Positions 133-29,760 of a stretch of DNA of 33,070 nt are shown here, one piece after another. This stretch comes from an uncultured Armatimonadia bacterium. Lineage in GTDB: Bacteria; Armatimonadota; Zipacnadia; Zipacnadales; UBA11051. Where the stretch lies: NCBI GenBank assembly GCA_964433395.1, contig CAYSRY010000003.1, forward strand, positions 303 to 33,372. Direction: 5' to 3'. The translations under genes were made by a program, and so were the position numbers. The notes under the pieces were generated by a model that saw only the letters and a program-made list of their open reading frames with translations, was not told where the DNA came from and did not search any database. The number at the start of each line of letters is the position of its first letter. Position 1 is the stretch's first letter.

Positions 133-278
133 GAAGATAGACGGTAGCGATGCTGTATAACGATTTTCGAATCTGGGCTGGAGAGTGGGGTCGCATTAGC
201 CAGGATGTAAGTACCATTGGCTGCATGATTCAATTGTTGTTGAATTGAGCATTGAGCGACGTCTCGGGAGGCAGACTG

Positions 279-3200
279 ATGAGCTACTCCAACGTGACGC
301 GGCAGACTGGGCTTGCACTCTTCGCCATGATTTTTGTAGTATTGTGTTTTTCGGCGGGTGCATTTGCTGGGATGCAGATTGATCTCGGCAACTGTCGCGA
401 CGAGTTTGTCCAGCAAACCGCTGCAAGGGAACACATCAGCCTTGAAGCTGCAAACAGGCAAATTGCGCGGGTTGAACAATCAACCGGTAGTCGCATACTT
501 GAAGACTATGAGTTGCCCACAGGGGCCGTAGTAGATTATTACCGCGTTGACGGCACTGCAGAAGGACAACCTGTTGACTACAACGGATCGGCCGTTGTTA
601 CCACCCACGGGTCCCCTTTAGGGCAGTCATATATCCGGCAACAGCGCGTTCGCATGCCGCTGATCCAGCGGGTAGCCAAATGGCTCGGGGATATTTTCAC
701 CCCGAGCAATCAGGCAATATTGGTGCCAGTAGGCATGTTGGGAGCGGGGCAGTCGGCGGAGGCAGTAAGCGCGCTGGCTGGAGCGACTGACACGATTCGC
801 ATCGCGGTCATTGGCGCTGAATTTCCTCCCTGGGACGACAAACCCCCAACCGCCAGTGACTACTATCAAAGTTCCAGGACAGCATTTGGTGCGCTGGACA
901 CAACAGTGCGTGAGTATCCAATGTATTGGAACTCCGACACAAACTTTGATACGTCAGTGGGCGCAGGCGATGATACTAGTGGCAGCGAATGGGCGCCCAG
1001 TGAATATGCAGACAGCCCTGGCGGGCCGTTTGTTGGTGGTGCTGCACAAGGCCTGACGGGCCCCTGGAGCGGGACTACCTCCCCGAATAACGCTACTCCT
1101 CCGACGTCCTATTCAGCTGAGAATTCACGGCAGGGTTGGACGTCTTTCAATTTGCGCAACAGTTGGTGGAACAACCTCTTTAATCTCAGCAACTCCAGCT
1201 CCCTTACGAATTACTATTACGCCAATTCGCATGGCTTGAAGCGAATTGAGGGTGATCAGACATCAGTCATCGGCTGGGTGCGCAGTCATCACTACCTGGA
1301 TCGCAATCCCTATGGGATGAGCTATGATTACGTGCGCCAGCCGGGCACCCCACTTATTCGACCTACCACAGCCGAACCGGGGGATGCTGATTTCATAGTT
1401 CGCGCGAGCATTACTCAAGATGCACTCACCATACTGTTTGGGAAAGATGTCGCGCTCAATTCATCGAGTACATCGTCCACAACTCCATGGTATGTGAGCG
1501 CTATAAGTCTGACGGTTGAACAGGCCGTGTCTGATAATGAAAATCCCGGCACGGAACCGATCTGGAACGGAGCGGATACATCGACCACATTCAACCCGGC
1601 AACCGGCCATTTGGTAGATGCACGGGATAATCGACGCCATCAATGGACCAGTGCCGATTGGCATTATGAGTATGACCCTGATACTGATCCAGCAGAGACA
1701 GATGATGAAGAGATCGAACCATTCGCCATCTACACAGGTCAGGACTGGGGAATTCAAGTCACTCTTCGAAACGCCAGTACTGCAGCCGTCGAAGTGTGCA
1801 CATGGCAGCCAGGGGCGACACGTCGAGTAGGCGATACGATTGTATACCAAGGTTTTGTATACGACCTTCCGGCTGCCGCAGGAAATGCCTATCGCCCACA
1901 GAATGGCGGCTGCGCAGCGCTACCGAACACAACATTCCGCGAGGAAGATGTTTTAGCCAAGTCTGTCGCTCAGACTACGGCGTGGCAACAATATGAGAAC
2001 GGGTCAACAACAGGTTCAGTGCCCGATCAGCGCATGTTTGGTCAGGGCGTGACTGGCGCCGATGGCGATGACTATGGTCTAGGCAATCGGCTGAAGACAT
2101 TTGCCTTCTATCACAATTACTACTACCCAGATACAAGCGGCTATCAGCTACTCAGCTTGATGAATGCCAATGGCGCTCGAGATGACATTGGTGGTACTGT
2201 TGAGGGGACACGGGTCGCCCGTGCTTACCCATTCAATCTGAATGGTACTGCAAATGCAAACAGCGGATTTGACCTCGTAACACCTAGTGTCGTTGCCTTG
2301 GGGGCGCCTGCAAATCTCTCTCCTGGCTATGGGCATGATGCCAATGCAATGATGGTAGATGTGAACCGTGCGATGGCCGACCAAGGTATAAACCTTGGAT
2401 CTCTTGGCTACAATGGCGTGATTTATTTGTTCCCGAACGGAGGATCAGCCTCAGACGAGAGTGATCCGGGCATGCGCATGATTCCACGTGGTGGTGGCGG
2501 TGTCGCGCTTCTGCCCGAAAATGCCGGGCTCGGCCTCATAGCACATGAGACCGGTCATGCGTATTATGGATTTATAGATCTGTACGATCGGGACTTCTAT
2601 AATAACTACATGGTTCCACCGGCCGAACGACCGGATCCTCTGCATAAAATGTGTCTTGCCATGGGACCGTACAGTGTCATGGCCCGCGGCGCAAATGGTG
2701 TCCGCGTGGACGCATACACGAAAATCAATGCAGGATGGGCGACGCCCGTCGAAGTCACCGAAGATCGCTTGAACACGGAGATTCCACAGATTGAAGCTGA
2801 TCTGCGTGAGCCGGTTATTCTGAAATTGCCGGCAAACCCCTATGATATTCTGGAGGGCAACGCGCCCAGCACATGGAAAGAATATTTCCTCGTTGAGAAT
2901 CACAATAAAGCAGGATATTTCGGTGATGCAACCCCGCAAGGCCTCTACATCTACCATGTTGACGAACGCGGTGTGAAGTACATCCCGCGGAATCACCCGC
3001 AGGGGCAAGTTCAGGTTGATGAAGAAGCATTGCAGGTCACAATGGTGCAAGCAGACGGCCTGAAGCAGCTTGAAGAACTTGAAGTTGGCGACAGCATAAG
3101 TGCAAGCACTTGGGCGGGAGATCCGTTCCCCGGCACTTACAATATTCGGAAATTTTCCCAGCTTCCACAGCTCATAAGCGCAACAGGTTCCTGGTCAGCA

Positions 3201-6200
3201 ACTAGCGTTACCCATGGTAACACAATGACTGGCCCACTCGGGACCACAATCCTGCAGCCAAACACACAGGTTGACAGCTTCGCTCGCGTAGTTAACATCA
3301 GCGATCCGAGCCCAACCATGACCGCTGATATTTTTGTAAAACCCCGAGAAATTATCGTCACTGATGTTAGCCATGCACCAGGTGACCCGACAAGCGCCCA
3401 CCCGGATTATCCGGGCATCTATGATACACTCGCAGTTGGCTACGATGGCGCCGATGCGCGGCACATTGTGCAGGGCGCTGAGAAACAGGGCGTCCTTGCT
3501 ATCAAATTGGACAACCCCGAATACAATGGCTCAGACTTCAAATATGTATCAACTGATGATGTCGTCATTGACAGCATAAAAGTTCTGGAAAGTGGTACTT
3601 CACAACAGCAGGTTGGCGAACAACATCCAGTCGTTGAGCAAGCTTACCTTTACCTGGAAAGTAACGGGGTCGAGGGCCTGCAGACGACGTCAGGCAGTGC
3701 GGACGCGCGTATTGGAGTTACAACGCTTGGTTCACTTCAGGACGACTTTGGTGATAAAGAAGAATATGCGATATTCCGTAATCTCGGACTGAGTGTGCCA
3801 CTGAATAGCTCACGTATCATATATGTTGCATACGATATTCGGGCAAATGCTCAAATCACACCTGCAGTCACAGTGGGTGCTGAGCTCAGCGACTACACAT
3901 TCATAGTACCCGCAGCACCGGGCGCTGTTCAGGAACGAGCACGTCTAGGTGCGAAGTGGGCATTCGGAAATCACCGCTTCCCAATCGTTGGTACTACGGC
4001 AGTGACAGTCGAACGCCCCGACGAGCTGCAGATCACCGCCAATCCGCCTGCGCCAGGGGCAGGCGTCGTTGCACCATCTGCTATCAAGCAGGGCATGGCA
4101 AATGTTCCGTTGATGCAGATGCGCATGCATTCAACGGACGATGAAGTCATTGTCGGTCGGATCAAAGTTGACGCAACCAGCGGAGCTGGATATGCAGATG
4201 CCCTCGAGGATCTTACCGGCATCAAATTGTGGCTTGATGTAAATAATGATGGTATTGCAGATCCTGGCACTGATGTCCTGTTGTCAGAGGCCAACTTCAT
4301 TGACATGTCACCGAACAATCCGCAGGCATTGCTGCAGCTTGATGATCTGAGTGATCCCGCGCTGCGCACCATTGTTGCGGGCCAGGATGAATACTGGTTG
4401 CTGACGGTTGACGTTGAGCAGGATGCACCAGGAGCTCAGATTGAGCTGCGGATAGAGAACGTAGGGTATATATCACTCATAACAAACCCGAGTCAGCCTG
4501 GTATTGCAGACTCAGTTGATGGCTCAAACTTCCCGCTTGTGAGTGGTACAGGTAACATCATCGCGCGGCCAAATCCGCCGGTTGCTCCGTTCAGTCCGGT
4601 CAATGACGCGCGCATAACCGATCATTCCCCAACGTTTACCTGGGGAGCGGCAACTGATAATGCACCGAATCCGACGCCGCAGGCCGAGCTCCATTATGAA
4701 CTGAAAATCGCAAATGATCCGCTGATGAATAACATCATTTTCGAATTCAGCACGGCCGCGAACCCGGGCGAAACAACATTCTCATTCCCCGACGGCACAG
4801 AGTTGCCAGACCCAGGCGACTCCGATGTAGAGTTTTACTGGGTACTTTATACGGTGGATGGGGATGCCTGCAGTTCAGATGCTACCAATATCATGCACTT
4901 TACCCTTGTTGGTAACCAGGCACCAAATATTCCAATGTCCGGTTTTTGGCCCAACAATGACATAACCATAGATGATAACACTCCAACCTGTGTCTGGAAT
5001 GCCGTCAGCGATCCGGACCCGACTGATGCGCCGGCGAATATCCACTATGTTGTCCAGTTCAGCAACAGTGGATCAACTCCAGCACTGTTCGATGCTGACC
5101 CGGACTACGAATACACCAGTGCAGCTGGCAATGCTTCGGTCACACCGACTGTACCGCTCGCTGATCTCACGAAATGGTATTGGCGCGTGAAGGCCGTCGA
5201 TGACAGCGGTCTCGCATCTGGATGGAGTCCGATCCAGGTTTTCAATGTGGATATTAACAATCAGCCACCAAGCCTCGCAGCACCCATCAGTGAGCCGATG
5301 TTAGCTCCAGTGTATGGGACATTGGCCACATATTATGAATTGCAGATCCAATATACAGATCCCGAAGGCGATGCACCAGGGAATGTCCGAGTCACAATTG
5401 ACATGGGCACTGCTAATGAGCAGACCTTGACAATGGCAGCTGTGGCTCCAGTAACGCCAACTACCAACGATTACAGAAACGGCGTCCGTTACGCAGTGGG
5501 TATCTCCGGAGCTGACCTCGGCTATGGTATGCACAGCTGGGTTTTCTGGACTGATAACGGAGCGCGCCTGCCCAACAACGCCCCAGATACTGGTGCAGGA
5601 CCAGTTGTCGGATCAGCAGCCGCAATCCGCCTCACCGACATCGCATGGGCCAACGTGACCGGCTACGTAGAGACACCGACAGCCAATGTCTACGTCGAGG
5701 TTTCGGACGTAGATGAAAACGCCGACCCTGCGGCTGTAGACAATATTCTTGTGACCCTCTACCAGTCAATTTCCGGGGGTGATCTGGAGAGTGTCACCCT
5801 CGTCGAAACGGGGAACAATACCGGCGTGTTCCGCGGTCAAATTCAACTGCGAGGAATGTCGGGCACCGCATACGACGGTACGCTCAACGTTTCCGGCGGT
5901 CCCGGTATTCAGATCGTTGCCCAATACATCGACAAAGATGATACCGGCAATCCTGGACTTGCAGATAATGCATCGCCGGACGCTCCATTCGTTGTCGCCA
6001 ATGTCACTGATAGTTACGCCCCAGCCGCTGTGACTGATTTCACAGTCCTAAGCGGTGATGAGGGAACATCGGCTATTGCAGATTGGACATGGGATGGTGT
6101 CAATGGCTACGATGAGGCGGCTGAGATTGATGTCGTCGGCTACAGGGTCTACTACGCTACTGCCGACTTCACCAATACGTCAGACGCCGGTGTGCACATG

Positions 6201-6272
6201 TGGACTTCCCTTGTGCCAGCGGGTACTGACACGGGACACGAATTACTGGCTTGCTATCGTGGCCGTCGATGA
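279..6272 (+). CDS. Giant secreted M6 (immune inhibitor A-like) zinc metalloprotease, N-terminal reading-frame segment
   Basis: The ORF runs 252..6272. The best start is ATG 279, preceded by GGGAGG (266-271). The N-terminus has a signal peptide (LALFAMIFVVLCFSAGAFA). The zinc motif HETGH is at 2544-2558, followed by IDLYDRD, matching the M6/InhA HExxH...DxYD pattern. IRIAVIGAEFPPWDD resembles the M6 N-terminal strand. Three tandem FN3/Ig-like modules lie at about 4560-6240. The frame ends in nonsense (GHELLACYRGRR*) in the middle of an FN3-like module. Confidence 0.85.
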   Translation: MSYSNVTRQTGLALFAMIFVVLCFSAGAFAGMQIDLGNCRDEFVQQTAAREHISLEAANRQIARVEQSTGSRILEDYELPTGAVVDYYRVDGTAEGQPVDYNGSAVVTTHGSPLGQSYIRQQRVRMPLIQRVAKWLGDIFTPSNQAILVPVGMLGAGQSAEAVSALAGATDTIRIAVIGAEFPPWDDKPPTASDYYQSSRTAFGALDTTVREYPMYWNSDTNFDTSVGAGDDTSGSEWAPSEYADSPGGPFVGGAAQGLTGPWSGTTSPNNATPPTSYSAENSRQGWTSFNLRNSWWNNLFNLSNSSSLTNYYYANSHGLKRIEGDQTSVIGWVRSHHYLDRNPYGMSYDYVRQPGTPLIRPTTAEPGDADFIVRASITQDALTILFGKDVALNSSSTSSTTPWYVSAISLTVEQAVSDNENPGTEPIWNGADTSTTFNPATGHLVDARDNRRHQWTSADWHYEYDPDTDPAETDDEEIEPFAIYTGQDWGIQVTLRNASTAAVEVCTWQPGATRRVGDTIVYQGFVYDLPAAAGNAYRPQNGGCAALPNTTFREEDVLAKSVAQTTAWQQYENGSTTGSVPDQRMFGQGVTGADGDDYGLGNRLKTFAFYHNYYYPDTSGYQLLSLMNANGARDDIGGTVEGTRVARAYPFNLNGTANANSGFDLVTPSVVALGAPANLSPGYGHDANAMMVDVNRAMADQGINLGSLGYNGVIYLFPNGGSASDESDPGMRMIPRGGGGVALLPENAGLGLIAHETGHAYYGFIDLYDRDFYNNYMVPPAERPDPLHKMCLAMGPYSVMARGANGVRVDAYTKINAGWATPVEVTEDRLNTEIPQIEADLREPVILKLPANPYDILEGNAPSTWKEYFLVENHNKAGYFGDATPQGLYIYHVDERGVKYIPRNHPQGQVQVDEEALQVTMVQADGLKQLEELEVGDSISASTWAGDPFPGTYNIRKFSQLPQLISATGSWSATSVTHGNTMTGPLGTTILQPNTQVDSFARVVNISDPSPTMTADIFVKPREIIVTDVSHAPGDPTSAHPDYPGIYDTLAVGYDGADARHIVQGAEKQGVLAIKLDNPEYNGSDFKYVSTDDVVIDSIKVLESGTSQQQVGEQHPVVEQAYLYLESNGVEGLQTTSGSADARIGVTTLGSLQDDFGDKEEYAIFRNLGLSVPLNSSRIIYVAYDIRANAQITPAVTVGAELSDYTFIVPAAPGAVQERARLGAKWAFGNHRFPIVGTTAVTVERPDELQITANPPAPGAGVVAPSAIKQGMANVPLMQMRMHSTDDEVIVGRIKVDATSGAGYADALEDLTGIKLWLDVNNDGIADPGTDVLLSEANFIDMSPNNPQALLQLDDLSDPALRTIVAGQDEYWLLTVDVEQDAPGAQIELRIENVGYISLITNPSQPGIADSVDGSNFPLVSGTGNIIARPNPPVAPFSPVNDARITDHSPTFTWGAATDNAPNPTPQAELHYELKIANDPLMNNIIFEFSTAANPGETTFSFPDGTELPDPGDSDVEFYWVLYTVDGDACSSDATNIMHFTLVGNQAPNIPMSGFWPNNDITIDDNTPTCVWNAVSDPDPTDAPANIHYVVQFSNSGSTPALFDADPDYEYTSAAGNASVTPTVPLADLTKWYWRVKAVDDSGLASGWSPIQVFNVDINNQPPSLAAPISEPMLAPVYGTLATYYELQIQYTDPEGDAPGNVRVTIDMGTANEQTLTMAAVAPVTPTTNDYRNGVRYAVGISGADLGYGMHSWVFWTDNGARLPNNAPDTGAGPVVGSAAAIRLTDIAWANVTGYVETPTANVYVEVSDVDENADPAAVDNILVTLYQSISGGDLESVTLVETGNNTGVFRGQIQLRGMSGTAYDGTLNVSGGPGIQIVAQYIDKDDTGNPGLADNASPDAPFVVANVTDSYAPAAVTDFTVLSGDEGTSAIADWTWDGVNGYDEAAEIDVVGYRVYYATADFTNTSDAGVHMWTSLVPAGTDTGHELLACYRGRR

Positions 6273-9200
6273 TGCTGGAAATCCAACCGGTCCGGTTGGT
6301 GTGACAACAGTCAATGTCTTCACCAGTGACGGTCAGCCACCTGTGATTTCTAATCTGTTCCCTGCGAATGGAGCAACGGAATTACCGCTTGGTACGAGCA
6401 TTAGCTTCCGCGTCTCAGACATGGGGAGTGGAGTTGATGCCAGTAGTCTGACAGCCAGTGTGAATGGTGTCGACGTGGCGGCAGATTTCGTGACATCAGC
6501 CGTTTCTGGCAACAATATCGTTGACTTCACATATACACCAACCACTCCATTTGCATGGAATGACACAGTCACCGTTGAGATAGGTATCAGTGACGGGGAC
6601 GCAAACGGTCCGACAAACGCAAATTGGAGCTTCAATGTTCTTGCGGATCACGTCAATCCTGAGGTCACTGATCTGTCACCTGCTGATGGTGCGACCAGTG
6701 TCAATGTGGCTAACAGCATATCGTTCCACCTCACTGACGACAAATCTGGCGTCAATCTCGCGATAGATGCTGGATACATCAATCCGGCCAGCAGCAGTGT
6801 CACGGTTTTGTTTAACGGTGTCGACGTGACCGCTGCCGTAGCTGCCCAACAGGTTGACGGTAATCGTGACATTCTCTGTACATATGATCCGCCAACCTCA
6901 CTACTGTACAACAGCACCTATCAAGTGGATGTGACTGTACAAGATGTCGCTGGCAATGCGACACCCGCAGCCACTACAACGTGGACCTTTGACACGCCGA
7001 CCGATTCCACTGGTGTGACAGTCGACCAGTTCACCCCGGCCAGAGACGCAACTAATGTTCCGGTGACCACAACTATCAGCATGCGACTGAATGATGCGCA
7101 GTCTGGTGTGAATGCGGGCACAATCAAGCTCTGGGTGAACGGGAGCGAAGTAACAGGTTCGATCGTCACGAACGTACTTGGGAGTGCAATCGAGGTTGTG
7201 TACGTTCCCACTGCAAACCTCCCGTATGAGACTGACATCTTCGTTCGCGTGTATGCCAAAGATAATGTGGACAACGAGACAGACATGACGTACAAGTTCA
7301 CAACTGAGGCTGCGCCGACATATGTCATCTCCGGCACAATCCGTACCGCACTCGACCAGCCGGTTGCCGGTGCTCTCGTGGAGTGCAGCGATGGACACAG
7401 CACAACTACCGATGGGAATGGCGCGTACTTGATGACCGATGTCTTGGCAGGCACCTACACCGTTACGCCATCCAAGCCACATTGGACATTTGCACCAACC
7501 TCACAGGACGTGACGGCCGGTCCAGAAGATGTTGCAGGTGTGAACTTCACAGGTACTGAGATAACCTATGTCCTCTCCGGCTATATTGTGGATCGTGACG
7601 ACAACGGTGTTGAAGGCGTCCAGGTGTGGTATGGCGAGCAGTACGTGGAGACGGACGCGAATGGCCGTTACGATATCGCAGGTTTGCGCGTAGGTCAGTA
7701 TACGATTACGCCTACTCTGCAATATCATCACTTCGATCCGGTAAATCGTGTGGCTGAAATAGTCGATGCTGACGTGCTCGTCGGAAATATCATTGCAATT
7801 CCCAACACGTTTAGTATATCGGGTACTATTTATGATAGTTCTGGTTCCCGTGTGCAGGGCGTGGAAATAAGCTATGATGACAACGTGGCTATTACAAATG
7901 AAGCGGGGCAATACACACTTAGCAACGTTGCGATCGGCACGCATACCTTAACGGCTTCAAAGCTAGGTTACAGCCTGCTTCCCGCATCGTTGGAAGTCAC
8001 TGTCCCACCAGATGTAACTGGCGCAAATTTCACGGCCTATACCGAGTTGAGCAATTCATTCTCCTCGGGTACAAATCTGATCGGCGTGCCAGGCAATCCA
8101 ATTGACCCGAATCCAGTGACGGTATTTGATACTCTTGACGTCGCGCGTTGGGATCCGGATGCATCGCCTGGAGCGTATACATTGGCAACCACTTCCGCAA
8201 CCACGAATTTCATGCGGGTTCGCCCTGGGGCTGGCTTCTTCGTCCGGTACGCTAACGCCAAAACCCTGCGTTTCGCCGCAGAGAGCACACCGAGTGACAG
8301 AGCTCTCAGTTTTGGTCTTGGCGTTGGGTGGAACATGATTGCCAATCCGTTTACGAATCCGACTAAATTTGCCGACTTCCAACCAACCATTGCTGGTGGT
8401 ATTCAACCATATGCGTTCATCTACAATCCGAGTACCCATAGCTACGAACTGATCTCGGCACGATCCGGCATAAACGTGCAGCGTGACAATATCCAGCCGT
8501 GGGAAGGTGCGTGGGTGATGTGTGCCGCTGGTGGGTGTTCGCTGAGCGTCTCGCCATCCGTTGGCGTCACATCGATCGACAGTAAACCCGAGGCGGCGGA
8601 CATATCCACCGGGTACGTAATCCCAATCATGGCAACGTCCGCAGGGTGCAGCGACACAAGTAGTGTTGCAGGTGTGGTCCCAGGTGGTGTAGACTACGTC
8701 ATACCAAACCCGCCCACTGCACCGGAAACTGTGGACGTATATTTCACAGCAAAAGATGGACAGCGGCTGGCACACGATGTACGAAGCGAAACCACCGGTA
8801 CGGACAATTTTGAGTTCGTGGTGAGTAGCGCAGTTGGTGCTGGAGATGTAACGGTGATGCTTCCGGATCTCAGCAGTGTCCCGGCACAGTATGACGTACT
8901 GCTGACTGATGTGGATGCAGACAAGACGGTGTATGCGCGCACAATGCAGGCCTATACTTATCGCGCAACTGACGCCGTGTCCACACGGCATTTCCGCATC
9001 GACGTCACACCAAGATCGATGGCGAGTCTCACGGTCTCGACCGCTGCAGCCACTCAGCAGGCAGGCGGGGCGGTTATAACGTACAGCGTCTCACAGAGCT
9101 GTAATGTGAACATGACCGTCCGCAATATGGCAGGCCGCGCCATCAAGGTAATCAGCAGTGGCAAACTGGTTGCAGCAGGTGCAAATACAGAGGTATGGAA

Positions 9201-9318
9201 CTTGAGCAACAATGCGGGCGCCAAAGTTCCTGCAGGCTCATATCTGATCCAGATAGAAGCTGTTACAGGCAGTGGCCAACAGGCGAGAGCCTTGACCCGG
9301 TTAGATATAAACCGCTAA
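6055..9318 (+). CDS. C-terminal reading-frame segment of the same giant surface protease (Ig-like repeats, carboxypeptidase-regulatory-like repeats, FlgD-Ig/T9SS-like C-terminal domain)
   Basis: The ORF runs 6055..9318 in the +1 frame relative to 252..6272. The first ~60 codons (MMREHRLLQIGHGMVSMATMRRLRL...) do not look protein-like. Protein-like sequence starts at NYWLAIVAVDDAGNP (6241 onward). Three Big_5/SbsA-Ig-like repeats lie at about 6334-7318 (PPVISNLFPANGAT, NPEVTDLSPADGAT, TVDQFTPARDAT). Three CarboxypepD_reg-like repeats lie at about 7321-8040 (ISGTIRTALDQPVAGA, LSGYIVDRDDNGVEG, ISGTIYDSSGSRVQG). The C-terminal beta-sandwich reads ...VWNLSNNAGAKVPAGSYLIQIEA... Confidence 0.8.
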   Translation: MMREHRLLQIGHGMVSMATMRRLRLMSSATGSTTLLPTSPIRQTPVCTCGLPLCQRVLTRDTNYWLAIVAVDDAGNPTGPVGVTTVNVFTSDGQPPVISNLFPANGATELPLGTSISFRVSDMGSGVDASSLTASVNGVDVAADFVTSAVSGNNIVDFTYTPTTPFAWNDTVTVEIGISDGDANGPTNANWSFNVLADHVNPEVTDLSPADGATSVNVANSISFHLTDDKSGVNLAIDAGYINPASSSVTVLFNGVDVTAAVAAQQVDGNRDILCTYDPPTSLLYNSTYQVDVTVQDVAGNATPAATTTWTFDTPTDSTGVTVDQFTPARDATNVPVTTTISMRLNDAQSGVNAGTIKLWVNGSEVTGSIVTNVLGSAIEVVYVPTANLPYETDIFVRVYAKDNVDNETDMTYKFTTEAAPTYVISGTIRTALDQPVAGALVECSDGHSTTTDGNGAYLMTDVLAGTYTVTPSKPHWTFAPTSQDVTAGPEDVAGVNFTGTEITYVLSGYIVDRDDNGVEGVQVWYGEQYVETDANGRYDIAGLRVGQYTITPTLQYHHFDPVNRVAEIVDADVLVGNIIAIPNTFSISGTIYDSSGSRVQGVEISYDDNVAITNEAGQYTLSNVAIGTHTLTASKLGYSLLPASLEVTVPPDVTGANFTAYTELSNSFSSGTNLIGVPGNPIDPNPVTVFDTLDVARWDPDASPGAYTLATTSATTNFMRVRPGAGFFVRYANAKTLRFAAESTPSDRALSFGLGVGWNMIANPFTNPTKFADFQPTIAGGIQPYAFIYNPSTHSYELISARSGINVQRDNIQPWEGAWVMCAAGGCSLSVSPSVGVTSIDSKPEAADISTGYVIPIMATSAGCSDTSSVAGVVPGGVDYVIPNPPTAPETVDVYFTAKDGQRLAHDVRSETTGTDNFEFVVSSAVGAGDVTVMLPDLSSVPAQYDVLLTDVDADKTVYARTMQAYTYRATDAVSTRHFRIDVTPRSMASLTVSTAAATQQAGGAVITYSVSQSCNVNMTVRNMAGRAIKVISSGKLVAAGANTEVWNLSNNAGAKVPAGSYLIQIEAVTGSGQQARALTRLDINR

Positions 9319-13651: not shown

Positions 13652-16111
13652 ATGCGGGAACTCACCCCAAAGCAACTGAGGAAAGAGTGTGCCCTCAGCC
13701 TGTTTGATTTTGAGACTACCGAAGAGCTAAGTGATCTGCGCAATGTCATAGGACAACGCAGAGCGATGGGTGCACTCGAGTTCGCTGCCAATATTGGTAA
13801 TGATGGTTACAATGTATACGTCATGGGGCAGGTCGGGACTGGGCGATCATCAAGTTCGCGCAACTTCCTGGTTGCTCGTGCGAAACAGGAGCCAGTTTCT
13901 GATGACTGGTGCTATGTGTACAATTTTGCTGATCCTCGTGTGCCGAAAGCCGTCAACCTTCCTGCTGGGCATGGCGTCGAATGGCAAGCGACCATGCAGA
14001 AGGTTACTCGCGAATTGCTCAGCCAGGTCATGGGGGCTTTCGAAAGCGATGAGTACAACGAGAAACGCGACGACATTTTGCGCAGTTTTCGCGAAGAGCG
14101 CAATCTCGAACTCCAGGAGTTTGAGCGGGTTGTCGAAGAAGCCGGATTCACCCTCGGGCGTTCGCCGGCTGGCCTCATCGTTGCGCCCGCAGCAAACGGC
14201 GAAGTCATGGATCCGCAGGAATATCGAAAACTGACCGAAGAGCAGCGCAAAGCGCTCGAGGACAAGCGTCAGGAATTGCAGGGAATGCTGGCAGAGATCA
14301 TGCGGCGAGGCCAGCGTGAAGAGAAACTCACTCGCCAGCAGGTGCAGGCGTTGGACCGCGAGATTGCGCGCACTGTCATTGAGCCGCTACTCGAAGAAAT
14401 CCGGGAGAAAAATCGGGACTACGAGGCTGTTCTCAGGCATATTGATGACGTCGAAAATGATCTGCTCGAGAACATCAGCCGTGTCAGGCAGGCCACCGAA
14501 GATGGCGATGGCCAGACGCAGACGCCATTCGGTCCTCAGGGTAGTTCTGCAGGCGCAGTGCCGATGATGGATCGCTATCAGGTGAATGTCCTCATCAACA
14601 ATGCTGAACTTGAGGGCGCACCGGTCATTTTTGAAGCTAATCCCACACTGGAGGGGCTGACTGGTGAAGTCGAGCACCAGACCCAGATGGGAGCGCTCGT
14701 CACTGATTTCACGATGATCAAACCTGGTGCTCTCCACAAAGCCAACGGCGGGTATCTGCTGCTGGAAGTCCATCAGTTGCTCACGCGCCCTTACGCATGG
14801 GACGCGCTCAAACGTGCCATCAAAAATGAGCATATTCGCATTGAGTCGCTTCGCGACCAGTACCGATTCATATCTACAGTCAGTCTCGAGCCGGAACCAA
14901 TTCCATTGCAGGTCAAAGTCGTACTCATCGGCAACCCGATGCTCTATTACCTCCTCTACGAATATGACGAGGATTTCCGTAAGCTTTTCAAAGTCAAAGC
15001 TGATTTCGATAGCCAGGTACCGCGTACCGCCGCGACTTCACGTCAGTATGCCGCACTTGTTGGTGAGATATGCCGCCGTGAAAAACTCGCACATTTCTCG
15101 CCTGAGGCGGTTGCGAAAATCGTTGAGCATGGCAGCCGGCTCGCAGGCGATCAGCGCAAATTGAGCCTCAATTTCTCCACGATCAGCAATCTGGTCAAGG
15201 AATCGGCGTACTGGGCATCTACGGCCAAGCACGAGATCGTCGGTGCCGAGGATGTTGCAGAAGCACTCAGCCAGCAGATCTATCGCTCGAGCCGCATTGA
15301 AGAACGACTGACTGAGATGATTGCCGACGGCACCATCATGGTCGACGTCAAAGGCGAGAAGACGGGGCAGATCAACGGACTTGCAGTCATTCAGCTTGGC
15401 GACTACATGATGGGCAAGCCCAGCCGCCTGACCTGCAGGACATTCCCGGGACGCTCTGGTGTCGTGAATCTGGACCGAGACGCCAAAATGACTGGCAGAA
15501 TCCATGACAAAGGCCTGCTCACTATCACCGGTTTCCTTGGTGAACGTTTCGCCCAGGAAACTCCGCTCTCGCTTTCTGGGCACATATCGTTCGAACAGCT
15601 CTATGAGCAGCTTGATGGCGATTCCGCCTCCTCCACCGAGCTTTACGCGCTCTTGTCCAGTATTGCTGGCGTACCTATCAGGCAGGGCATTGCCGTCACT
15701 GGTTCGGTCAACCAGCTCGGCGAAGTACAAGCCATCGGCGGCGTCAACGCAAAGATCGAAGGATACTATGCAGTTTGCAAGGCCATAGGCCTGACAGGTG
15801 AACAGGGAGTCATAATCCCTGAAGCCAACCGTCCGCACCTCATGCTCAATGACGAGGTCATCAATGCAGTCGAAAGTGGTAAGTTTCACGTCTGGTCAGT
15901 GAAACACATTGACGAGGGAATAGAGATACTGACAGGCATCAAAGCCGGCCGACGTGGCAAATCTGGCCGGTACCCGAAGGGTACCATTAATGCACGTGTC
16001 CAGGCACGACTGGATGAATTTGCAGACACACTGAAGACTTCCGGAAAACCAGAAAACAACAATAGTAAGGCTGAAGAGAGCGGCAAGACAAACAATAACA
16101 AAGAAGAATAG
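13652..16111 (+). CDS. Lon-like serine protease of the LonC type (degenerate AAA+ module with a coiled-coil insertion and a Ser-Lys protease domain)
   Basis: The Walker-A-like motif GQVGTGRS (13826-13849) has Arg where the invariant Lys should be. The Walker B position reads GGYLLLEVHQL and lacks the DE pair. A charged coiled-coil insertion lies at about 14050-14400. The protease domain has GDSAS (15617-15631) and GGVNAKIEG, the Ser-Lys dyad context. Confidence 0.8.
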   Translation: MRELTPKQLRKECALSLFDFETTEELSDLRNVIGQRRAMGALEFAANIGNDGYNVYVMGQVGTGRSSSSRNFLVARAKQEPVSDDWCYVYNFADPRVPKAVNLPAGHGVEWQATMQKVTRELLSQVMGAFESDEYNEKRDDILRSFREERNLELQEFERVVEEAGFTLGRSPAGLIVAPAANGEVMDPQEYRKLTEEQRKALEDKRQELQGMLAEIMRRGQREEKLTRQQVQALDREIARTVIEPLLEEIREKNRDYEAVLRHIDDVENDLLENISRVRQATEDGDGQTQTPFGPQGSSAGAVPMMDRYQVNVLINNAELEGAPVIFEANPTLEGLTGEVEHQTQMGALVTDFTMIKPGALHKANGGYLLLEVHQLLTRPYAWDALKRAIKNEHIRIESLRDQYRFISTVSLEPEPIPLQVKVVLIGNPMLYYLLYEYDEDFRKLFKVKADFDSQVPRTAATSRQYAALVGEICRREKLAHFSPEAVAKIVEHGSRLAGDQRKLSLNFSTISNLVKESAYWASTAKHEIVGAEDVAEALSQQIYRSSRIEERLTEMIADGTIMVDVKGEKTGQINGLAVIQLGDYMMGKPSRLTCRTFPGRSGVVNLDRDAKMTGRIHDKGLLTITGFLGERFAQETPLSLSGHISFEQLYEQLDGDSASSTELYALLSSIAGVPIRQGIAVTGSVNQLGEVQAIGGVNAKIEGYYAVCKAIGLTGEQGVIIPEANRPHLMLNDEVINAVESGKFHVWSVKHIDEGIEILTGIKAGRRGKSGRYPKGTINARVQARLDEFADTLKTSGKPENNNSKAEESGKTNNNKEE

Positions 16112-16135: not shown

Positions 16136-16165
16136 AGGGGCGGCCTTATGGTACGCCCCTTTTTG
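16136..16165 (+). terminator. Rho-independent terminator after the Lon-like gene
   Basis: AGGGGCG (16136-16142) pairs with CGCCCCT (16154-16160) across an 11-nt loop. It is followed directly by TTTTT (16160-16164). Confidence 0.75.
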
Positions 16166-16202: not shown

Positions 16203-17096
16203 ATGGATAGGCCTGAAAAGCCAGTTATTCGCGTTTCTAAGGCTTGGCTGGAGATGCTCAACCGTGTGAAAGACCAGCCAGGTCGTATTGTTATAATCGG
16301 CGCAGCTGACAGTGGCAAAAGTGTGCTTGCCCAATGGCTCCGGACAAAACTACCAGAATGGGGCTCCACCGCTGCAATTGATGGCGACGTCGGACAGTGC
16401 GAATTCGGTCCTCCAGGTGTCGTTACCAACTGGCTTGTTGGCCAACAGATGCGCCATTCATATTTTGTTGGTGACACAACTCCTGTTAGTCGGCCTGCCG
16501 CAGTTCTGAGTGCATTTGCGCGAAGCCTGCGCGACGTCGAAGCCTCCGGCGCCCGTTTCACCGTTATCAACACCACCGGCTATGTCGATGGTGACGGAGC
16601 AGTAGCACTTAAAACTGCCAAAGTTGAGATGCTCGCACCTGCTCACATCATCGTTCTTGGAGATAGTTCTGCTATGCGCAGGCTCCGCAAATGTTGGCAG
16701 GGGTACGAGGATGTCACAGTCACACCGGTTGGCCTAGCCGATAATCTCCGTACCAAGACCGCCGCTGAACGTCGCGAGAACAGGCGTGAACGCTTCGCTG
16801 ATGCCCTGCAGGGAAGCAATATGCGGTGGCTTGCACTGCGTGACATTGCGGTACAGACTATAACCGATGCGCCGCCGATTTCACCCGATGGAGGCCCATT
16901 GCTGGGCTTTGTCGATGAGCACCGTCGTCTTGTCTGTATTGGTATATTGCATGCAATTGACCATAAATCGCGCCGCTTGCTTGTCTACGCACCGGAGATC
17001 GTCGAGAGTGCGACTGGTGTTATTTTCGGAAATCTGTCACTGAATTCCGGTGGTTTCGAGATCGGACGCAGCAGGAGCGAAGGAAAAACACGATGA
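16203..17096 (+). CDS. Clp1/Grc3-family P-loop polynucleotide 5'-hydroxyl kinase-like protein (COG1341-like)
   Basis: Walker A is GAADSGKS (16299-16322). IDGDVGQCEFGPPGVV resembles the Clp1 D-x-D-x-GQ...PG segment. FTVINTTGYVDG resembles the Clp1/Grc3 I-N-T-x-G-W/Y Walker B region. The length (297 aa) matches archaeal-type minimal Clp1. Confidence 0.6.
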   Translation: MDRPEKPVIRVSKAWLEMLNRVKDQPGRIVIIGAADSGKSVLAQWLRTKLPEWGSTAAIDGDVGQCEFGPPGVVTNWLVGQQMRHSYFVGDTTPVSRPAAVLSAFARSLRDVEASGARFTVINTTGYVDGDGAVALKTAKVEMLAPAHIIVLGDSSAMRRLRKCWQGYEDVTVTPVGLADNLRTKTAAERRENRRERFADALQGSNMRWLALRDIAVQTITDAPPISPDGGPLLGFVDEHRRLVCIGILHAIDHKSRRLLVYAPEIVESATGVIFGNLSLNSGGFEIGRSRSEGKTR

Positions 17097-18058
17097 GCAA
17101 ACAGATGATAGCTGAATTGTCGCTCGGCGATGCAGTCTCGAGCACTTTTCTTGTCAATCAGAAAAGCCTTATTGATTTTCGCAACAAGGAAGGGCATTGG
17201 CTGAGCCTGGTATTGGCAGATCGCACTGGCACAATCTCAGGCAGGGCTTGGGACAATGCAACGGCGCTTGACAGTCTTTTCAAGCCTGGTGATGTTGTGG
17301 CCGTTGATGGACGGGTTGAGGAATACCGCGGTAATCTGCAGCTTATCATCAACGACCTGCGGCCGTGTGCCCCGGGCGAGTTCTCGAAAAGCGACTTCAT
17401 GCGCAGTAGCAAGCGGGATTCTGCGGTACTCATCGAAGCCGTTGGTTCTTTCATTGCCATGGTCACCAACCCCTATCTCAAAGCGCTTCTTGAAAGTTTT
17501 TTTGGTGCCCCGCAGTTCATCGAAGATTTCAGCACCGCCCCGGGCGCCAAGGGATTACACCATTCGCATATTGGAGGCCTGCTGGAGCATACAGTCGGAG
17601 TTGTCAAAATCCTGCTGACTGTGAGAGAATGCCATCCAGAACTGGATCTCGATATGCTTATCACGGGTGGCCTCTTACACGACATAGGAAAGCTTCAGGA
17701 ACTCACCGTGGATGTCGGTATTGATTACAGCGATGGTGGCCGACTGCTGGGGCACATTATATACACAGATCGAATGGTCAATGAGGCTATCAATACCATC
17801 AACGGATTCCCACAGGAGCTCGCAGATAGGCTCTGTCATGTGCTTATAAGCCATCATGGACAGAAAGAATACGGCGCACCGGTCGTGCCGATGACGGTCG
17901 AAGCGTGTGCACTGCATTATGCCGACAATCTCGATGCGCACGTGCAGTATTTTCAGCAGGTTGTTGAAGCCGGTGCGGCTTCTGGCAATAGATGGTCGGA
18001 GTATCAGAAGCTGTTTGACAGGTATATCTATATTGGCGACAGAAGAGATTCCCAGTAA
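17093..18058 (+). CDS. YhaM-like OB-fold plus HD-domain phosphohydrolase/3'-5' exoribonuclease
   Basis: The start overlaps the upstream stop (ATGA at 17093-17096). The N-terminal OB fold reads LVLADRTGTISGRAWDNA...GDVVAVDGRVEEYRGNLQLII. HD-domain motifs are HHSHIGGLLEHT, GGLLHDIGK and LISHHG. Confidence 0.8.
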   Translation: MSKQMIAELSLGDAVSSTFLVNQKSLIDFRNKEGHWLSLVLADRTGTISGRAWDNATALDSLFKPGDVVAVDGRVEEYRGNLQLIINDLRPCAPGEFSKSDFMRSSKRDSAVLIEAVGSFIAMVTNPYLKALLESFFGAPQFIEDFSTAPGAKGLHHSHIGGLLEHTVGVVKILLTVRECHPELDLDMLITGGLLHDIGKLQELTVDVGIDYSDGGRLLGHIIYTDRMVNEAINTINGFPQELADRLCHVLISHHGQKEYGAPVVPMTVEACALHYADNLDAHVQYFQQVVEAGAASGNRWSEYQKLFDRYIYIGDRRDSQ

Positions 18059-18111
18059 TCGCAGTAAGGTCAGACATTGGTTGAACCTTCGTTATATAGG
18101 GTGCGTCTACC

Positions 18112-20462: not shown

Positions 20463-20497
20463 AGCAGCCGCCCCAATGGGGCGGCTGCTATATTTTT
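20463..20497. terminator. Strong hairpin terminator between convergent genes
   Basis: AGCAGCCGCCCC (20463-20474) pairs perfectly with GGGGCGGCTGCT (20478-20489). It is followed by ATATTTTT on the + strand. The U-tract on the minus strand is weaker. Confidence 0.8.
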
Positions 20498-28098: not shown

Positions 28099-29760
28099 TT
28101 ACTCCATCACCGCACCGGTTGACGCTGACAGCACGTTGCGCGCATAGCGAGACAGCCAGCCGGTTGTCGCTTTCGATTCCGGGGCCTTCCAGGCGGCCCG
28201 GCGTTTCTCAAGCTCTGCGTCGTCTACCAATAACTCCAGCGTGCGCGCATCAAGGTCGACAACGATCTCGTCGCCATCTTCAACCAACGCAAGGTTCCCG
28301 CCTGCAGCCGCTTCGGGAGAAATGTGCCCGATGCACGGTCCACGCGTACCGCCGGAGAATCTGCCGTCCGTCAACAGACCAACGGATTCCTCTTTGCCCA
28401 TACCCGTCAAGGTTGCTGTGGGATTCAACATCTCGCGCATACCGGGACCGCCCTTCGGACCCTCGTAGCGGATGATGACCCATGAACCATCGGCGATCTT
28501 GTCGGCAAGAATTGCCGCCTGCGCCTCTTCCTCGGAATCAAAGCAGATGGCGGTTCCGCGGAAATGGCGCATCTTTTCGGAAACGGCGGACTGCTTAATA
28601 ACCGCACCGTCCGGGCAGAGGTTACCGCGGAGAACGGCTATACCACCTTCTTTCCGATACGCCTGGTCGATCGGACGGATGACGTCGCTATCCGTTACAA
28701 AGCCTTCATCGGCAATTTCCATGATGGTCTTGCCGGTGACGGTAATATTGTCTTCGAGCATCTCCCGGAGCACCGTAAATGCGCCTGCGATGCCGCCGGC
28801 CCAGTCGAAATCTTCCATCATGTACTCCCCGCCGGGGCGCAGATGCGCAATCTGCGGGGTGCTTTTCGATATCTCGTCAAACTCCTCAAGATCGATGTCT
28901 ACCCCGGCCTCGTGCGCAATTGCGGCAAGGTGCAGGCAGGAGTTCGTCGAACCGCCCAGTGCCATGTCCATACGGATTGCGTTACGAAGAGCGGCTTTTG
29001 TCATGATCTGGCGTGCTGTCGTGTCTGACGCAACCAGCTCACAGATCCGGCGACCGCTCTCATACGCAAGACGCTCCTTATTGCCAGAACCAGCAATACC
29101 GGTCCCCACGCCGACCAGACTCATGCCCATGGCCTCGGTGCAGCACGCCATAGTATTGGCTGTATAAAGCCCCTGGCACGAACCTTGCCCGGGACACGCT
29201 TCTGCCTCAAGACAATGAAGCTCTTCCTGTGTGATAACACCGCGCTGAGCCTTGTTGAATGCCTCAAAAGTATCGCGCACCAGCGAAAGGGGACGGCCTT
29301 TAAGACGACCCGAACGCATGGGACCAGCCGTCACGACGATGGCCGGAATGTCCAGTCGGCCCGCTGCCATCAGCATGCCCGGAGTGATCTTGTCACAGTT
29401 GGTCAGAAGTACAAGACCGTCAAAACCGTGCGCGATGGCCATACTTTCAACGGTGTCAGCTATCAGTTCGCGGCTCGGCAGGCTGTAGAACATGCCGGCA
29501 TGGCCCATCGCGACACCGTCGCAGATGGCTGGCGTCCCAAAACTCATCGGCGTCCCGCCGCCTGCGGCGATGCCAAGCTCAACTGAACGCAACAGACGCT
29601 CCATGCCAATGTGCCCCGCTACTATATCGCTGTAGCTGTTGGCGATCCCGATGAAGGGATTGTTGTCAAGCTGGCCCTTGGTATAACCACACGCGTGTAG
29701 CAGTGCGCGCGCGGGAGCACGGCTAATTCCCTGCACTACTGGACCACTGTGCTTTTTCAT
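28099..29760 (-). CDS. ilvD: Dihydroxy-acid dehydratase
   Basis: GGAGG lies upstream of ATG 29760. IlvD/Edd signatures are [28 protein letters not shown] and [12 protein letters not shown]. The protein is 553 aa. Confidence 0.94.

Follow-up and report, generated by a model that had tools for sequence, protein, structure and literature searches.

The stretch of DNA considered here, 33,070 nucleotides (nt) on contig CAYSRY010000003.1 of an uncultured Armatimonadia bacterium (assembly GCA_964433395.1) and referred to below as the window, contains two genes that overlap end to start, one for a Clp1-family polynucleotide kinase (open reading frame (ORF) A) and one for a YhaM-family protein (ORF B). 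Both proteins belong to known families and have kept the catalytic residues of those families, and the two genes have an old and tight linkage within one clade of bacteria. Judged by sequence comparison, it is the lineage-specific Clp1-YhaM operon that appears to be the new element, and we propose that its two products may cooperate in a housekeeping process acting on the ends of nucleic acids. The first-pass annotation of this DNA knew of no characterised bacterial Clp1-YhaM pair, and there is no paper joining YhaM and Clp1 in the literature searched, although an earlier mention may exist in the RNA-repair survey literature.

Family assignment of the two proteins

ORF A (16203..17096, plus strand, 297 residues) matches the Pfam profile CLP1_P (PF16575) with 86 bits (E 3.7e-24; the gathering score of the profile is 26.6 bits) over profile positions 1-183 of 188, and this is its sole Pfam match. 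Its AlphaFold model, made with 37 homologues, has a predicted local distance difference test score (pLDDT) of 89.7 and a predicted template modelling score (pTM) of 0.88. When this model is compared by Foldseek with the Protein Data Bank (PDB), the top 22 matches are all Clp1, Grc3 or NOL9 (E 2.9e-17 to 8.5e-8, TMq up to 0.70), the best of them being C. elegans Clp1 (4oi0, E 2.9e-17, TMq 0.69), and GTPases of the SRP and GPN types come next at E about 1e-3. The first-pass annotation had allowed that an unrelated P-loop NTPase, such as a MobB- or ArgK-like GTPase, might fit ORF A better than Clp1; the single CLP1_P match and the structural ranking lead us to reject such an assignment. The modelled protein consists of a polynucleotide kinase domain and a small beta-rich C-terminal domain, both of which are spanned by the structural match, and it lacks the N-terminal domain of the eukaryotic proteins, with approximately 25 residues forming one helix ahead of the P-loop strand. 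This is the architecture of the short bacterial Clp1 type without an N-terminal domain described by Saito et al. (PMC6777427), and we predict, from the sequence and the model together, that ORF A is a polynucleotide 5'-OH kinase of that type.

The motifs that define the family (Walker A, Walker B, Clasp and Lid; PMC6777427) can each be located in ORF A. The Walker A motif or P-loop, GAADSGKS (16299..16322, plus strand, residues 33-40), reads G33-AADSG-K39-S40, with G33, G38 and K39 invariant in the 37 homologues. The Walker B region, DGDVGQ (16380..16397, plus strand, residues 60-65), supplies the [D/E]hhQ signature as D62-V-G-Q65, and D60, D62, G64 and Q65 are likewise invariant in that set; a PPG sequence follows at residues 70-72. 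The sequence INTTGY (16566..16583, plus strand, residues 122-127) corresponds to the Clasp motif [T/S/L]xGW with tyrosine in place of tryptophan, and T124, T125, G126 and Y127 are invariant in a close clade of nine members, whereas the consensus of the wider family has tryptophan. The Lid motif RxxxxR (16767..16784, plus strand) is R189-R-E-N-R-R194 within AERRENRRERF, with R190 and R194 invariant in the close clade and R194 in all 37 homologues. The invariance of catalytic motifs among homologues that are 32-51% identical points to selection for an active kinase. All four of the motifs quoted in the first-pass annotation (GAADSGKS, DGDVGQ, PPG and INTTGY) are thus present, but its description of INTTGY as the Walker B region has to be corrected, as that sequence is the Clasp and Walker B lies in DGDVGQ (PMC6777427).

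The Clp1 family is rare in bacteria, being found in 0.9% of the species with complete genomes that were surveyed by these authors (PMC6777427), and bacterial Clp1 is discussed only by this group in the literature searched. The close clade of ORF A is small: of 1633 representatives (those at E <=1e-3 among 1.84 billion proteins), roughly 780 reach E 1e-10 and only nine reach E 1e-30, and identity to proteins outside the clade is about 30% or less. ORF A belongs to the same family as the prokaryotic 5'-OH kinases Ts-Clp1 of Thermus scotoductus and Ph-Clp1 of Pyrococcus horikoshii (PMC6777427), from which it differs in having the Clasp tyrosine where the motif definition has tryptophan, and in its conserved operon with YhaM. 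The main text of PMC6777427 is silent on operons, neighbouring genes and Armatimonadetes. The GC content at third codon positions (GC3) of ORF A is 0.49 as compared with 0.55-0.60 in the neighbouring genes; we considered a recent horizontal transfer of the Clp1 gene, and set it aside as the difference is too small to interpret.

ORF B (17093..18058, plus strand, 321 residues) has Pfam matches to an OB fold (PF01336, E 2e-10) and an HD domain (PF01966, E 1.6e-10), and scores 169 bits (E 1e-49) against the NCBIfam YhaM model NF010007. This is under the equivalog cut-off of 460, so that ORF B is to be taken as a family-level member and not as a proven functional equivalent of YhaM; its close relatives carry the NCBI name 'YhaM family protein'. 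It also matches the solved YhaM structures 9h3f (E 5e-41, residues 12-292) and 9o7t (E 1e-38), and is 30-31% identical to the YhaM proteins of S. aureus and B. subtilis over nearly its full length. The OB-fold domain (17183..17362, plus strand, residues 31-90) contains W53 and Y78, equivalent to W51 and Y76 of B. subtilis YhaM, in which exchange of Y76 weakens binding to single-stranded DNA (ssDNA) (PMC12107432). The HD domain (17582..17938, plus strand, residues 164-282) contains six metal ligands, H166, H196, D197, H254, H255 and D278, which correspond to H163, H193, D194, H250, H251 and D274 as defined by the cryo-EM structure of the B. subtilis protein (PMC12107432). All six ligands as well as W53 and Y78 are invariant in 11 orthologues, and ORF B is predicted to be a metal-dependent 3'-5' exonuclease. 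It shares the OB and HD architecture, the length, the six ligands and the OB aromatic residues with YhaM of B. subtilis, S. aureus and Streptococcus pyogenes, notwithstanding that it comes from a different phylum, is about 31% identical to the Firmicutes proteins and falls below the equivalog cut-off. The family assignments of the first-pass annotation, Clp1 for the first gene and YhaM for the second, are therefore borne out by the profile matches.

The YhaM family is more numerous and better conserved than the kinase, with 6156 matches, of which the best 120 clusters are 54-68% identical to ORF B. The named source organisms among these best 120 are Armatimonadota or candidate division WS1.

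Extent and conservation of the Clp1-YhaM unit

The stop codon of ORF A overlaps the start codon of ORF B in the sequence ATGA (17093..17096, plus strand), in agreement with the gene coordinates and overlap of the first-pass annotation, and a purine-rich stretch resembling a Shine-Dalgarno sequence, AGGAGCGAAGGA, lies within ORF A 10-21 nt 5' of the overlap. Overlaps of this kind are frequent between the genes of bacterial operons, and by itself this one is unremarkable. It supports co-transcription nonetheless, and the two genes are probably transcribed together and may be translationally coupled in the source genome.

Features on either side of the pair suggest where the unit begins and ends. 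On the 5' side, downstream of a gene for a LonC-like protease, there is a terminator-like hairpin (16137..16164, plus strand) that would form in RNA as GGGGCGGCC-UUAU-GGUACGCCCC followed by a U5 tract, with a folding energy of -22.2 kcal/mol (z = -2.7 relative to shuffled sequences). A scan for consensus terminators missed this hairpin, probably owing to the bulged base of its stem. We take it as the likely 5' boundary of the Clp1-YhaM unit. On the 3' side, an element resembling promoters of the extracytoplasmic function (ECF) type, TGAAC-N17-CGTCTA (18082..18109, plus strand), ends 2 nt 5' of the start codon of a sigma-factor gene, and is the sole intergenic GAAC-N15-19-CGTC site of the window. 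When the spacers between the YhaM and sigma-factor genes are compared (the window, L001-L002, L010-L020 and L054-L067), the sequence TGAAC-N16/17-CGTCTA is found in 14 of 14 distinct spacers, with 2-5 nt between its end and the ECF sigma-factor start codon. This element would mark the 3' boundary of the unit, and so appears to be part of its context and to lie outside the module itself. With the terminator of the LonC-like gene on one side and the sigma gene's own promoter-like element on the other, the simplest reading is a bounded bicistron of Clp1 and YhaM.

The short distance between the ECF-type element and the sigma-factor start codon suggests a self-regulated transcript that is leaderless or nearly so, although neither the true transcription start site nor the true start codon can be fixed from sequence alone. 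No ECF-type motif was found 5' of Clp1, either in the scan of the window or in the comparison of spacers, and we therefore reject the idea that Clp1 and YhaM are members of the ECF sigma regulon. A conserved promoter 5' of Clp1 was also sought by eye in the upstream regions of 14 loci, which have no obvious motif in common.

The adjacency of the two genes recurs in about 15 distinct related loci from Armatimonadota or from genomes labelled WS1, which answers the doubt raised in the first-pass annotation that it might be peculiar to one genome. In tblastn searches from the Clp1 side (loci L001-L003, L010-L018 and L020), YhaM lies directly 3' in every locus that has a Clp1 at least 34% identical to ORF A and enough downstream DNA, and a start from the YhaM side again places Clp1 just upstream for the orthologues P0051, P0045 and P0074. 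In 18 of 20 loci the Clp1 stop codon and the YhaM start codon are -19 to +30 nt apart; the two remaining loci have longer gaps, of 149 and 193 nt. The gene 5' of Clp1 is variable by comparison, with at least four types represented: LonC-like in most loci, a KaiC-family ATPase in two (L017 and L062), a glycosidase-type gene in L003, and in L066 an unannotated gene of 158 codons, with an AIR-synthase-like gene further upstream. The prediction that a short-type YhaM should have Clp1 upstream was put to one trial, with P0126, and Clp1 is indeed present (L066), although a phosphatase gene lies between the two. This intervening gene (L066 3353-3976; also in L067), which is confined to one lineage, encodes a histidine phosphatase of 207 residues (PF00300) and is separated from its neighbours by gaps of 11 and 24 nt, giving the order kinase-phosphatase-nuclease. 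The phosphatase is of a generic PhoE/CobC/PspA-like kind, its best NCBIfam matches being alpha-ribazole phosphatase, the acid-phosphatase half of an RNase H fusion, and PspA.

Three of the conserved genes differ in their rate of change across these loci, Clp1 (34-52% identity) diverging fastest as compared with YhaM (46-68%) and LonC (53-72%). Where the KaiC-family ATPase (PF06745) lies directly 5' of Clp1 (L062 2229-3074; L017, upstream of 3980), only a few bases separate its stop codon from the GTG with which Clp1 starts in both of these bacterial loci. A RadA/KaiC-like ATPase is also the divergent neighbour of Clp1 in the apparently archaeal loci L005-L007, but the bacterial and archaeal ATPases are barely alike (BLASTP E 0.014), and so this recurrence may be a coincidence.

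Some YhaM orthologues have no adjacent Clp1. A neighbour-joining tree computed from 322 alignment columns, with the YhaM proteins of B. subtilis and S. aureus as its root, places these orthologues in a monophyletic group in 100 of 100 bootstraps, and this group, a derived clade of Armatimonadota, is nested among Clp1-linked lineages in 99 of 100, a value that falls to 50 of 100 when the basal L018 is left out. This nesting implies that the linkage was probably ancestral to the assemblage and was lost once. On the sequences compared, the pairing is restricted to one assemblage of Armatimonadota and WS1-labelled genomes and is not general for bacterial Clp1.

There is a further difference among the YhaM orthologues in their length. 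The longer ones (P0135, P0151, P0111, P0123, P0148, P0109 and P0153; alignment A3) have a C-terminal tail of approximately 40 residues that is disordered, rich in Pro, Glu, Gln and Ala, and ends in a conserved G-x-L-F-D-x tip. The tail-bearing proteins form a monophyletic group, the Clp1-linked orthologues have no tail, and the two tail-bearing proteins with known context, P0135 (L060) and P0151 (L064), have no adjacent Clp1. From its sequence, the tail looks like a partner-binding peptide that could have been acquired upon loss of the Clp1 neighbour.

Possible roles of the kinase and the nuclease

A plausible explanation for the linkage, to which we give about an even chance, is that Clp1 and YhaM cooperate in the housekeeping processing or clearance of fragments with 5'-OH ends, with RNA being a likelier substrate than DNA. 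Such fragments result from metal-independent cleavage. The kinase encoded by ORF A would convert their 5'-OH ends to 5'-phosphates, which would allow 5'-phosphate-dependent enzymes of decay or maturation to act on them, and the exonuclease encoded by ORF B would trim or degrade the same fragments from the 3' side. Consistent with this, Ts-Clp1, the only bacterial precedent found for such an activity, phosphorylates 5'-OH ends in vitro with a preference for RNA (PMC6777427), and YhaM takes nucleotides off the 3' ends of RNA and of ssDNA (PMC12107432 for the latter). The neighbours of the pair in the window, MnmE, LonC, the ECF sigma module and the ilv genes, are also of a housekeeping kind. It is the linkage of the genes that suggests common substrates or mutual binding of the two enzymes; the substrate would presumably be RNA rather than DNA, and the outcome decay or maturation rather than ligation.

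Several points weigh against cooperation. A physical complex, or cooperation of any form, would be a proposal drawn from gene linkage, and YhaM is equally persistent beside the genes for the ECF sigma factor, anti-sigma factor and RseB-like protein, even where there is no adjacent Clp1. The orthologues P0135 and P0151, for example, keep these three genes downstream and have neither Clp1 nor LonC upstream. As the sigma gene has its own promoter-like element and the synteny is kept notwithstanding, long-lived synteny alone is no proof of a common function, and the existence of YhaM orthologues without an adjacent Clp1 indicates that YhaM needs no nearby Clp1. Clp1 genes that are more distant, whether from archaea or from bacteria, sit among unrelated genes and have no OB/HD gene beside them: RadA/KaiC-like and methyltransferase genes adjoin Clp1 in loci that are apparently archaeal (Thaumarchaeota-like by their neighbours), SurE, PCMT and Hsp33 genes are found in a proteobacterial-looking locus, and other loci have argC, argJ and ABC-transporter genes, or an iron alcohol dehydrogenase gene. 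The linkage of bacterial Clp1 to OB-HD proteins that the first-pass annotation suggested looking for is therefore real in one clade, but distant Clp1 genes are unlinked, and neither RtcB nor another ligase, which it had also thought of, is found in the window or in the related loci with gene tables examined. There is also no fusion of CLP1_P with OB/HD domains among the homologues listed for either protein. Moreover, phosphorylation of a 5' end does not make a molecule ready for a 3'-5' exonuclease, and the kinase and the nuclease would thus run in parallel and not in sequence. As B. subtilis YhaM has recently been described as a 3'-deoxyribonuclease that processes ssDNA in transformation (PMC12107432), the substrate could also be DNA.

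The first alternative is that there is no coupling at all and the two are independent housekeeping enzymes, their gene order having been inherited in a slowly rearranging region and their close spacing reflecting compact packing. The equally persistent linkage of YhaM to the downstream genes, which have a promoter-like element of their own, the clade of YhaM orthologues without adjacent Clp1, the unrelated neighbours of Clp1 outside the clade and the lack of listed fusions all favour this explanation, as does the LonC-like gene, which is likewise conserved upstream in many loci. However, the pair persists through at least four changes of the upstream gene and down to 34-38% identity of Clp1, in 18 of the 20 loci the genes still overlap or are no more than 30 nt apart, and the single insertion found is a tightly packed gene for another phosphoryl-transfer enzyme (L066). 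On balance we regard independence as a serious but rather unlikely explanation.

A different possibility is that the pair processes the ends of DNA, the kinase acting on 5'-OH DNA and YhaM on 3' ssDNA, in the repair of strand breaks or on incoming ssDNA. In B. subtilis, YhaM is described as LexA-regulated and as degrading ssDNA 3' overhangs, and DNA uptake, whether of plasmids or of genomic DNA, is severely impaired in cells without it (PMC12107432). Both W53 and Y78 are conserved here, the counterpart of the latter, Y76, being needed for ssDNA binding in the B. subtilis protein (PMC12107432), and the Clp1 enzymes of archaea and Thermus can phosphorylate 5'-OH ends of DNA too, albeit less well than those of RNA (PMC6777427). 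Nevertheless, the characterised enzymes of the Clp1 family favour RNA (PMC6777427), Firmicutes YhaM also acts on RNA 3' ends, and no genes for DNA repair, recombination or competence are present in the window or in the related loci with gene tables examined. We consider this explanation to be improbable.

The preferred reading, cooperation on 5'-OH fragments without ligation, also has to be set against known systems in which a 5' kinase is paired with a second end-processing activity. Like the pair described here, the eukaryotic Grc3-Las1 (NOL9-LAS1L) and Clp1-TSEN systems combine a Clp1-family kinase with a nuclease, and the fold of ORF A matches their kinases. The analogy, which was drawn in the first-pass annotation, holds as far as a kinase being associated with a nuclease, but is otherwise loose: the partners in those systems are endonucleases (HEPN-type Las1; TSEN) that generate 5'-OH ends, whereas ORF B is an HD-type 3'-5' exonuclease. 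Furthermore, the long N- and C-terminal regions by which Grc3/NOL9 bind their partners are absent from ORF A, and no HEPN or TSEN-like gene is present among the Pfam matches of the window.

Another parallel is the bacterial HD-Pnk of Runella slithyformis (Munir and Shuman 2017, cited in PMC6097658), which likewise unites an HD phosphoesterase with a 5'-OH kinase. However, HD-Pnk is a single fused polypeptide encoded beside a ligase and Tpt1 (PMC6097658), whereas here there are two proteins and no ligase. The Pnkp-Hen1 and Pnkp1-Rnl-Hen1 cassettes resemble the pair in bringing a 5' kinase together with a 3' end-modifying activity on broken RNA. These cassettes use a T4-type kinase, a calcineurin-like phosphatase, a ligase encoded as a domain or as a separate gene, and the Hen1 methyltransferase, and the present locus has none of them. 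The kinase of HD-Pnk is reportedly also of the T4 Pnk type, and its HD domain is said to lack an OB fold, as against the Clp1 type of ORF A and the OB/HD arrangement of ORF B.

These comparisons bear on whether the pair could be the healing half of an RNA repair pathway, with the kinase acting at the 5' end, the HD domain removing 2',3'-cyclic or 3'-phosphates, and a ligase encoded elsewhere, for example after damage by a ribotoxin. That a fused HD phosphoesterase and 5'-OH kinase exists in a bacterium (PMC6097658) lends this some plausibility, as does the phosphatase gene inside the pair in L066. There is in addition a Candidatus Eremiobacteraeota locus (L004) in which a Clp1 homologue (5001-5948, 30% identity) is divergent from a gene for RlaP (PF10127; 4007-4906, minus strand). 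This family was named for its association with RNA ligases (PMC12776372), and the Clp1 of L004 may thus have an RNA-repair context. Against such a role, known repair cassettes have the ligase adjacent (PMC6097658), whereas Pfam matches reveal no ligase, RtcB, toxin or defence gene in the 33-kb window, and there is none in the related loci with gene tables examined. Moreover, ORF B is orthologous to YhaM and has its OB fold, and such an exonuclease would degrade a 3' fragment and not heal it; we also found no evidence of YhaM hydrolysing cyclic or 3'-phosphates. We accordingly think repair by healing and sealing very improbable.

Least credible of all is a cassette for anti-phage defence or counter-defence, for which we see scarcely any prospect. 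Defence systems often contain HD nucleases and P-loop NTPases, and PADLOC returns weak matches for the pair (E 2.6e-4 to 5e-3), among them one to Csx3 (E 2.6e-4) that spans 25 P-loop residues, and others to the HD domains of Cas3 and Cas10 (E about 1e-3). These matches are short, however, and cover generic P-loop and HD motifs only. A tblastn search with ORF A gives no match among 72,556 plasmid and 50,697 phage records, no defence or mobile-element genes adjoin the pair, and its setting is a vertically inherited, housekeeping one. A defence or mobile-element origin was rejected on the motif-level nature of the PADLOC matches and the lack of plasmid or phage homologues. Repair after ribotoxin damage and defence had both been put forward in the first-pass annotation, and both have lost ground with these results; taken together, the sequence evidence does not support either a repair or a defence system at this locus.

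If cooperation of Clp1 and YhaM on RNA fragments is accepted, a more specific form of it can be imagined, which we offer as speculation that is unlikely to be right. A Clp1-type kinase might dock on a YhaM hexamer to give a kinase-nuclease holoenzyme, in which 5'-phosphorylation would be coupled to 3'-5' trimming. The RNA target could be a step in maturation, such as the removal of pre-rRNA or tRNA spacers after a cleavage that leaves 5'-OH ends, or the complex could clear fragments that have 5'-OH and 2',3'-cyclic-phosphate ends. In this model, the LFD tail of the YhaM proteins in the derived clade with no adjacent Clp1 would recruit a replacement partner.

Genomic surroundings and biological meaning

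The closest named relative is a Candidatus Zipacnadia (Armatimonadota) genome, and the window, from its gene content, is an ordinary chromosomal region of housekeeping character. By Pfam matches, MnmE, an EamA-type transporter and the LonC-like protease are encoded upstream of Clp1, and an ECF sigma factor, an anti-sigma factor and a LolA/RseB-like protein downstream of YhaM, followed further on by DUF6599, a thioredoxin-reductase-like gene, and ilvC, ilvN, ilvB and ilvD. The LonC-type Lon-like protease gene (13652-16111) has LonC_helical, AAA_32, LonB lid and Lon_C domains, and lies 5' of Clp1 in the majority of related loci, though not in every one. The LolA/RseB-like gene on the plus strand and the convergent DUF6599 gene on the minus strand are separated by a strong terminator-like hairpin (20463-20489) that could act in both directions, having a stem of 12-13 pairs (10 G-C) and T-rich runs on either strand; it closes the sigma/anti-sigma/RseB-like unit. 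A T-box leader (Rfam RF00230; 29875-30109, minus strand; 116 bits, E 2.9e-25) is situated 5' of ilvD (28099-29760, minus strand), the gene that heads the ilvD-ilvB-ilvN-ilvC cluster, and no tRNA gene was found in the window. At the other end (252-9318) two very large ORFs of 2006 and 1087 residues have Ig-like, Big_5 and CarboxypepD_reg domains and probably encode proteins of the cell surface. As listed, the two ORFs overlap by approximately 200 nt, probably owing to an upstream GTG having been taken as the beginning of the second one.

In eukaryotes, kinases of the Clp1 family have a central part in tRNA splicing, mRNA 3'-end formation and rRNA processing. A conserved and tight operon that links a bacterial Clp1 to a specific nuclease provides a testable handle on the role of the family in bacteria. 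If the two enzymes do cooperate, the handling of 5'-OH RNA ends by a kinase together with a nuclease would not be a eukaryotic invention, and the pair would represent a new route of bacterial RNA turnover. If they do not, the locus would still provide a well-documented example of a rare kinase that is vertically inherited in a poorly studied phylum.

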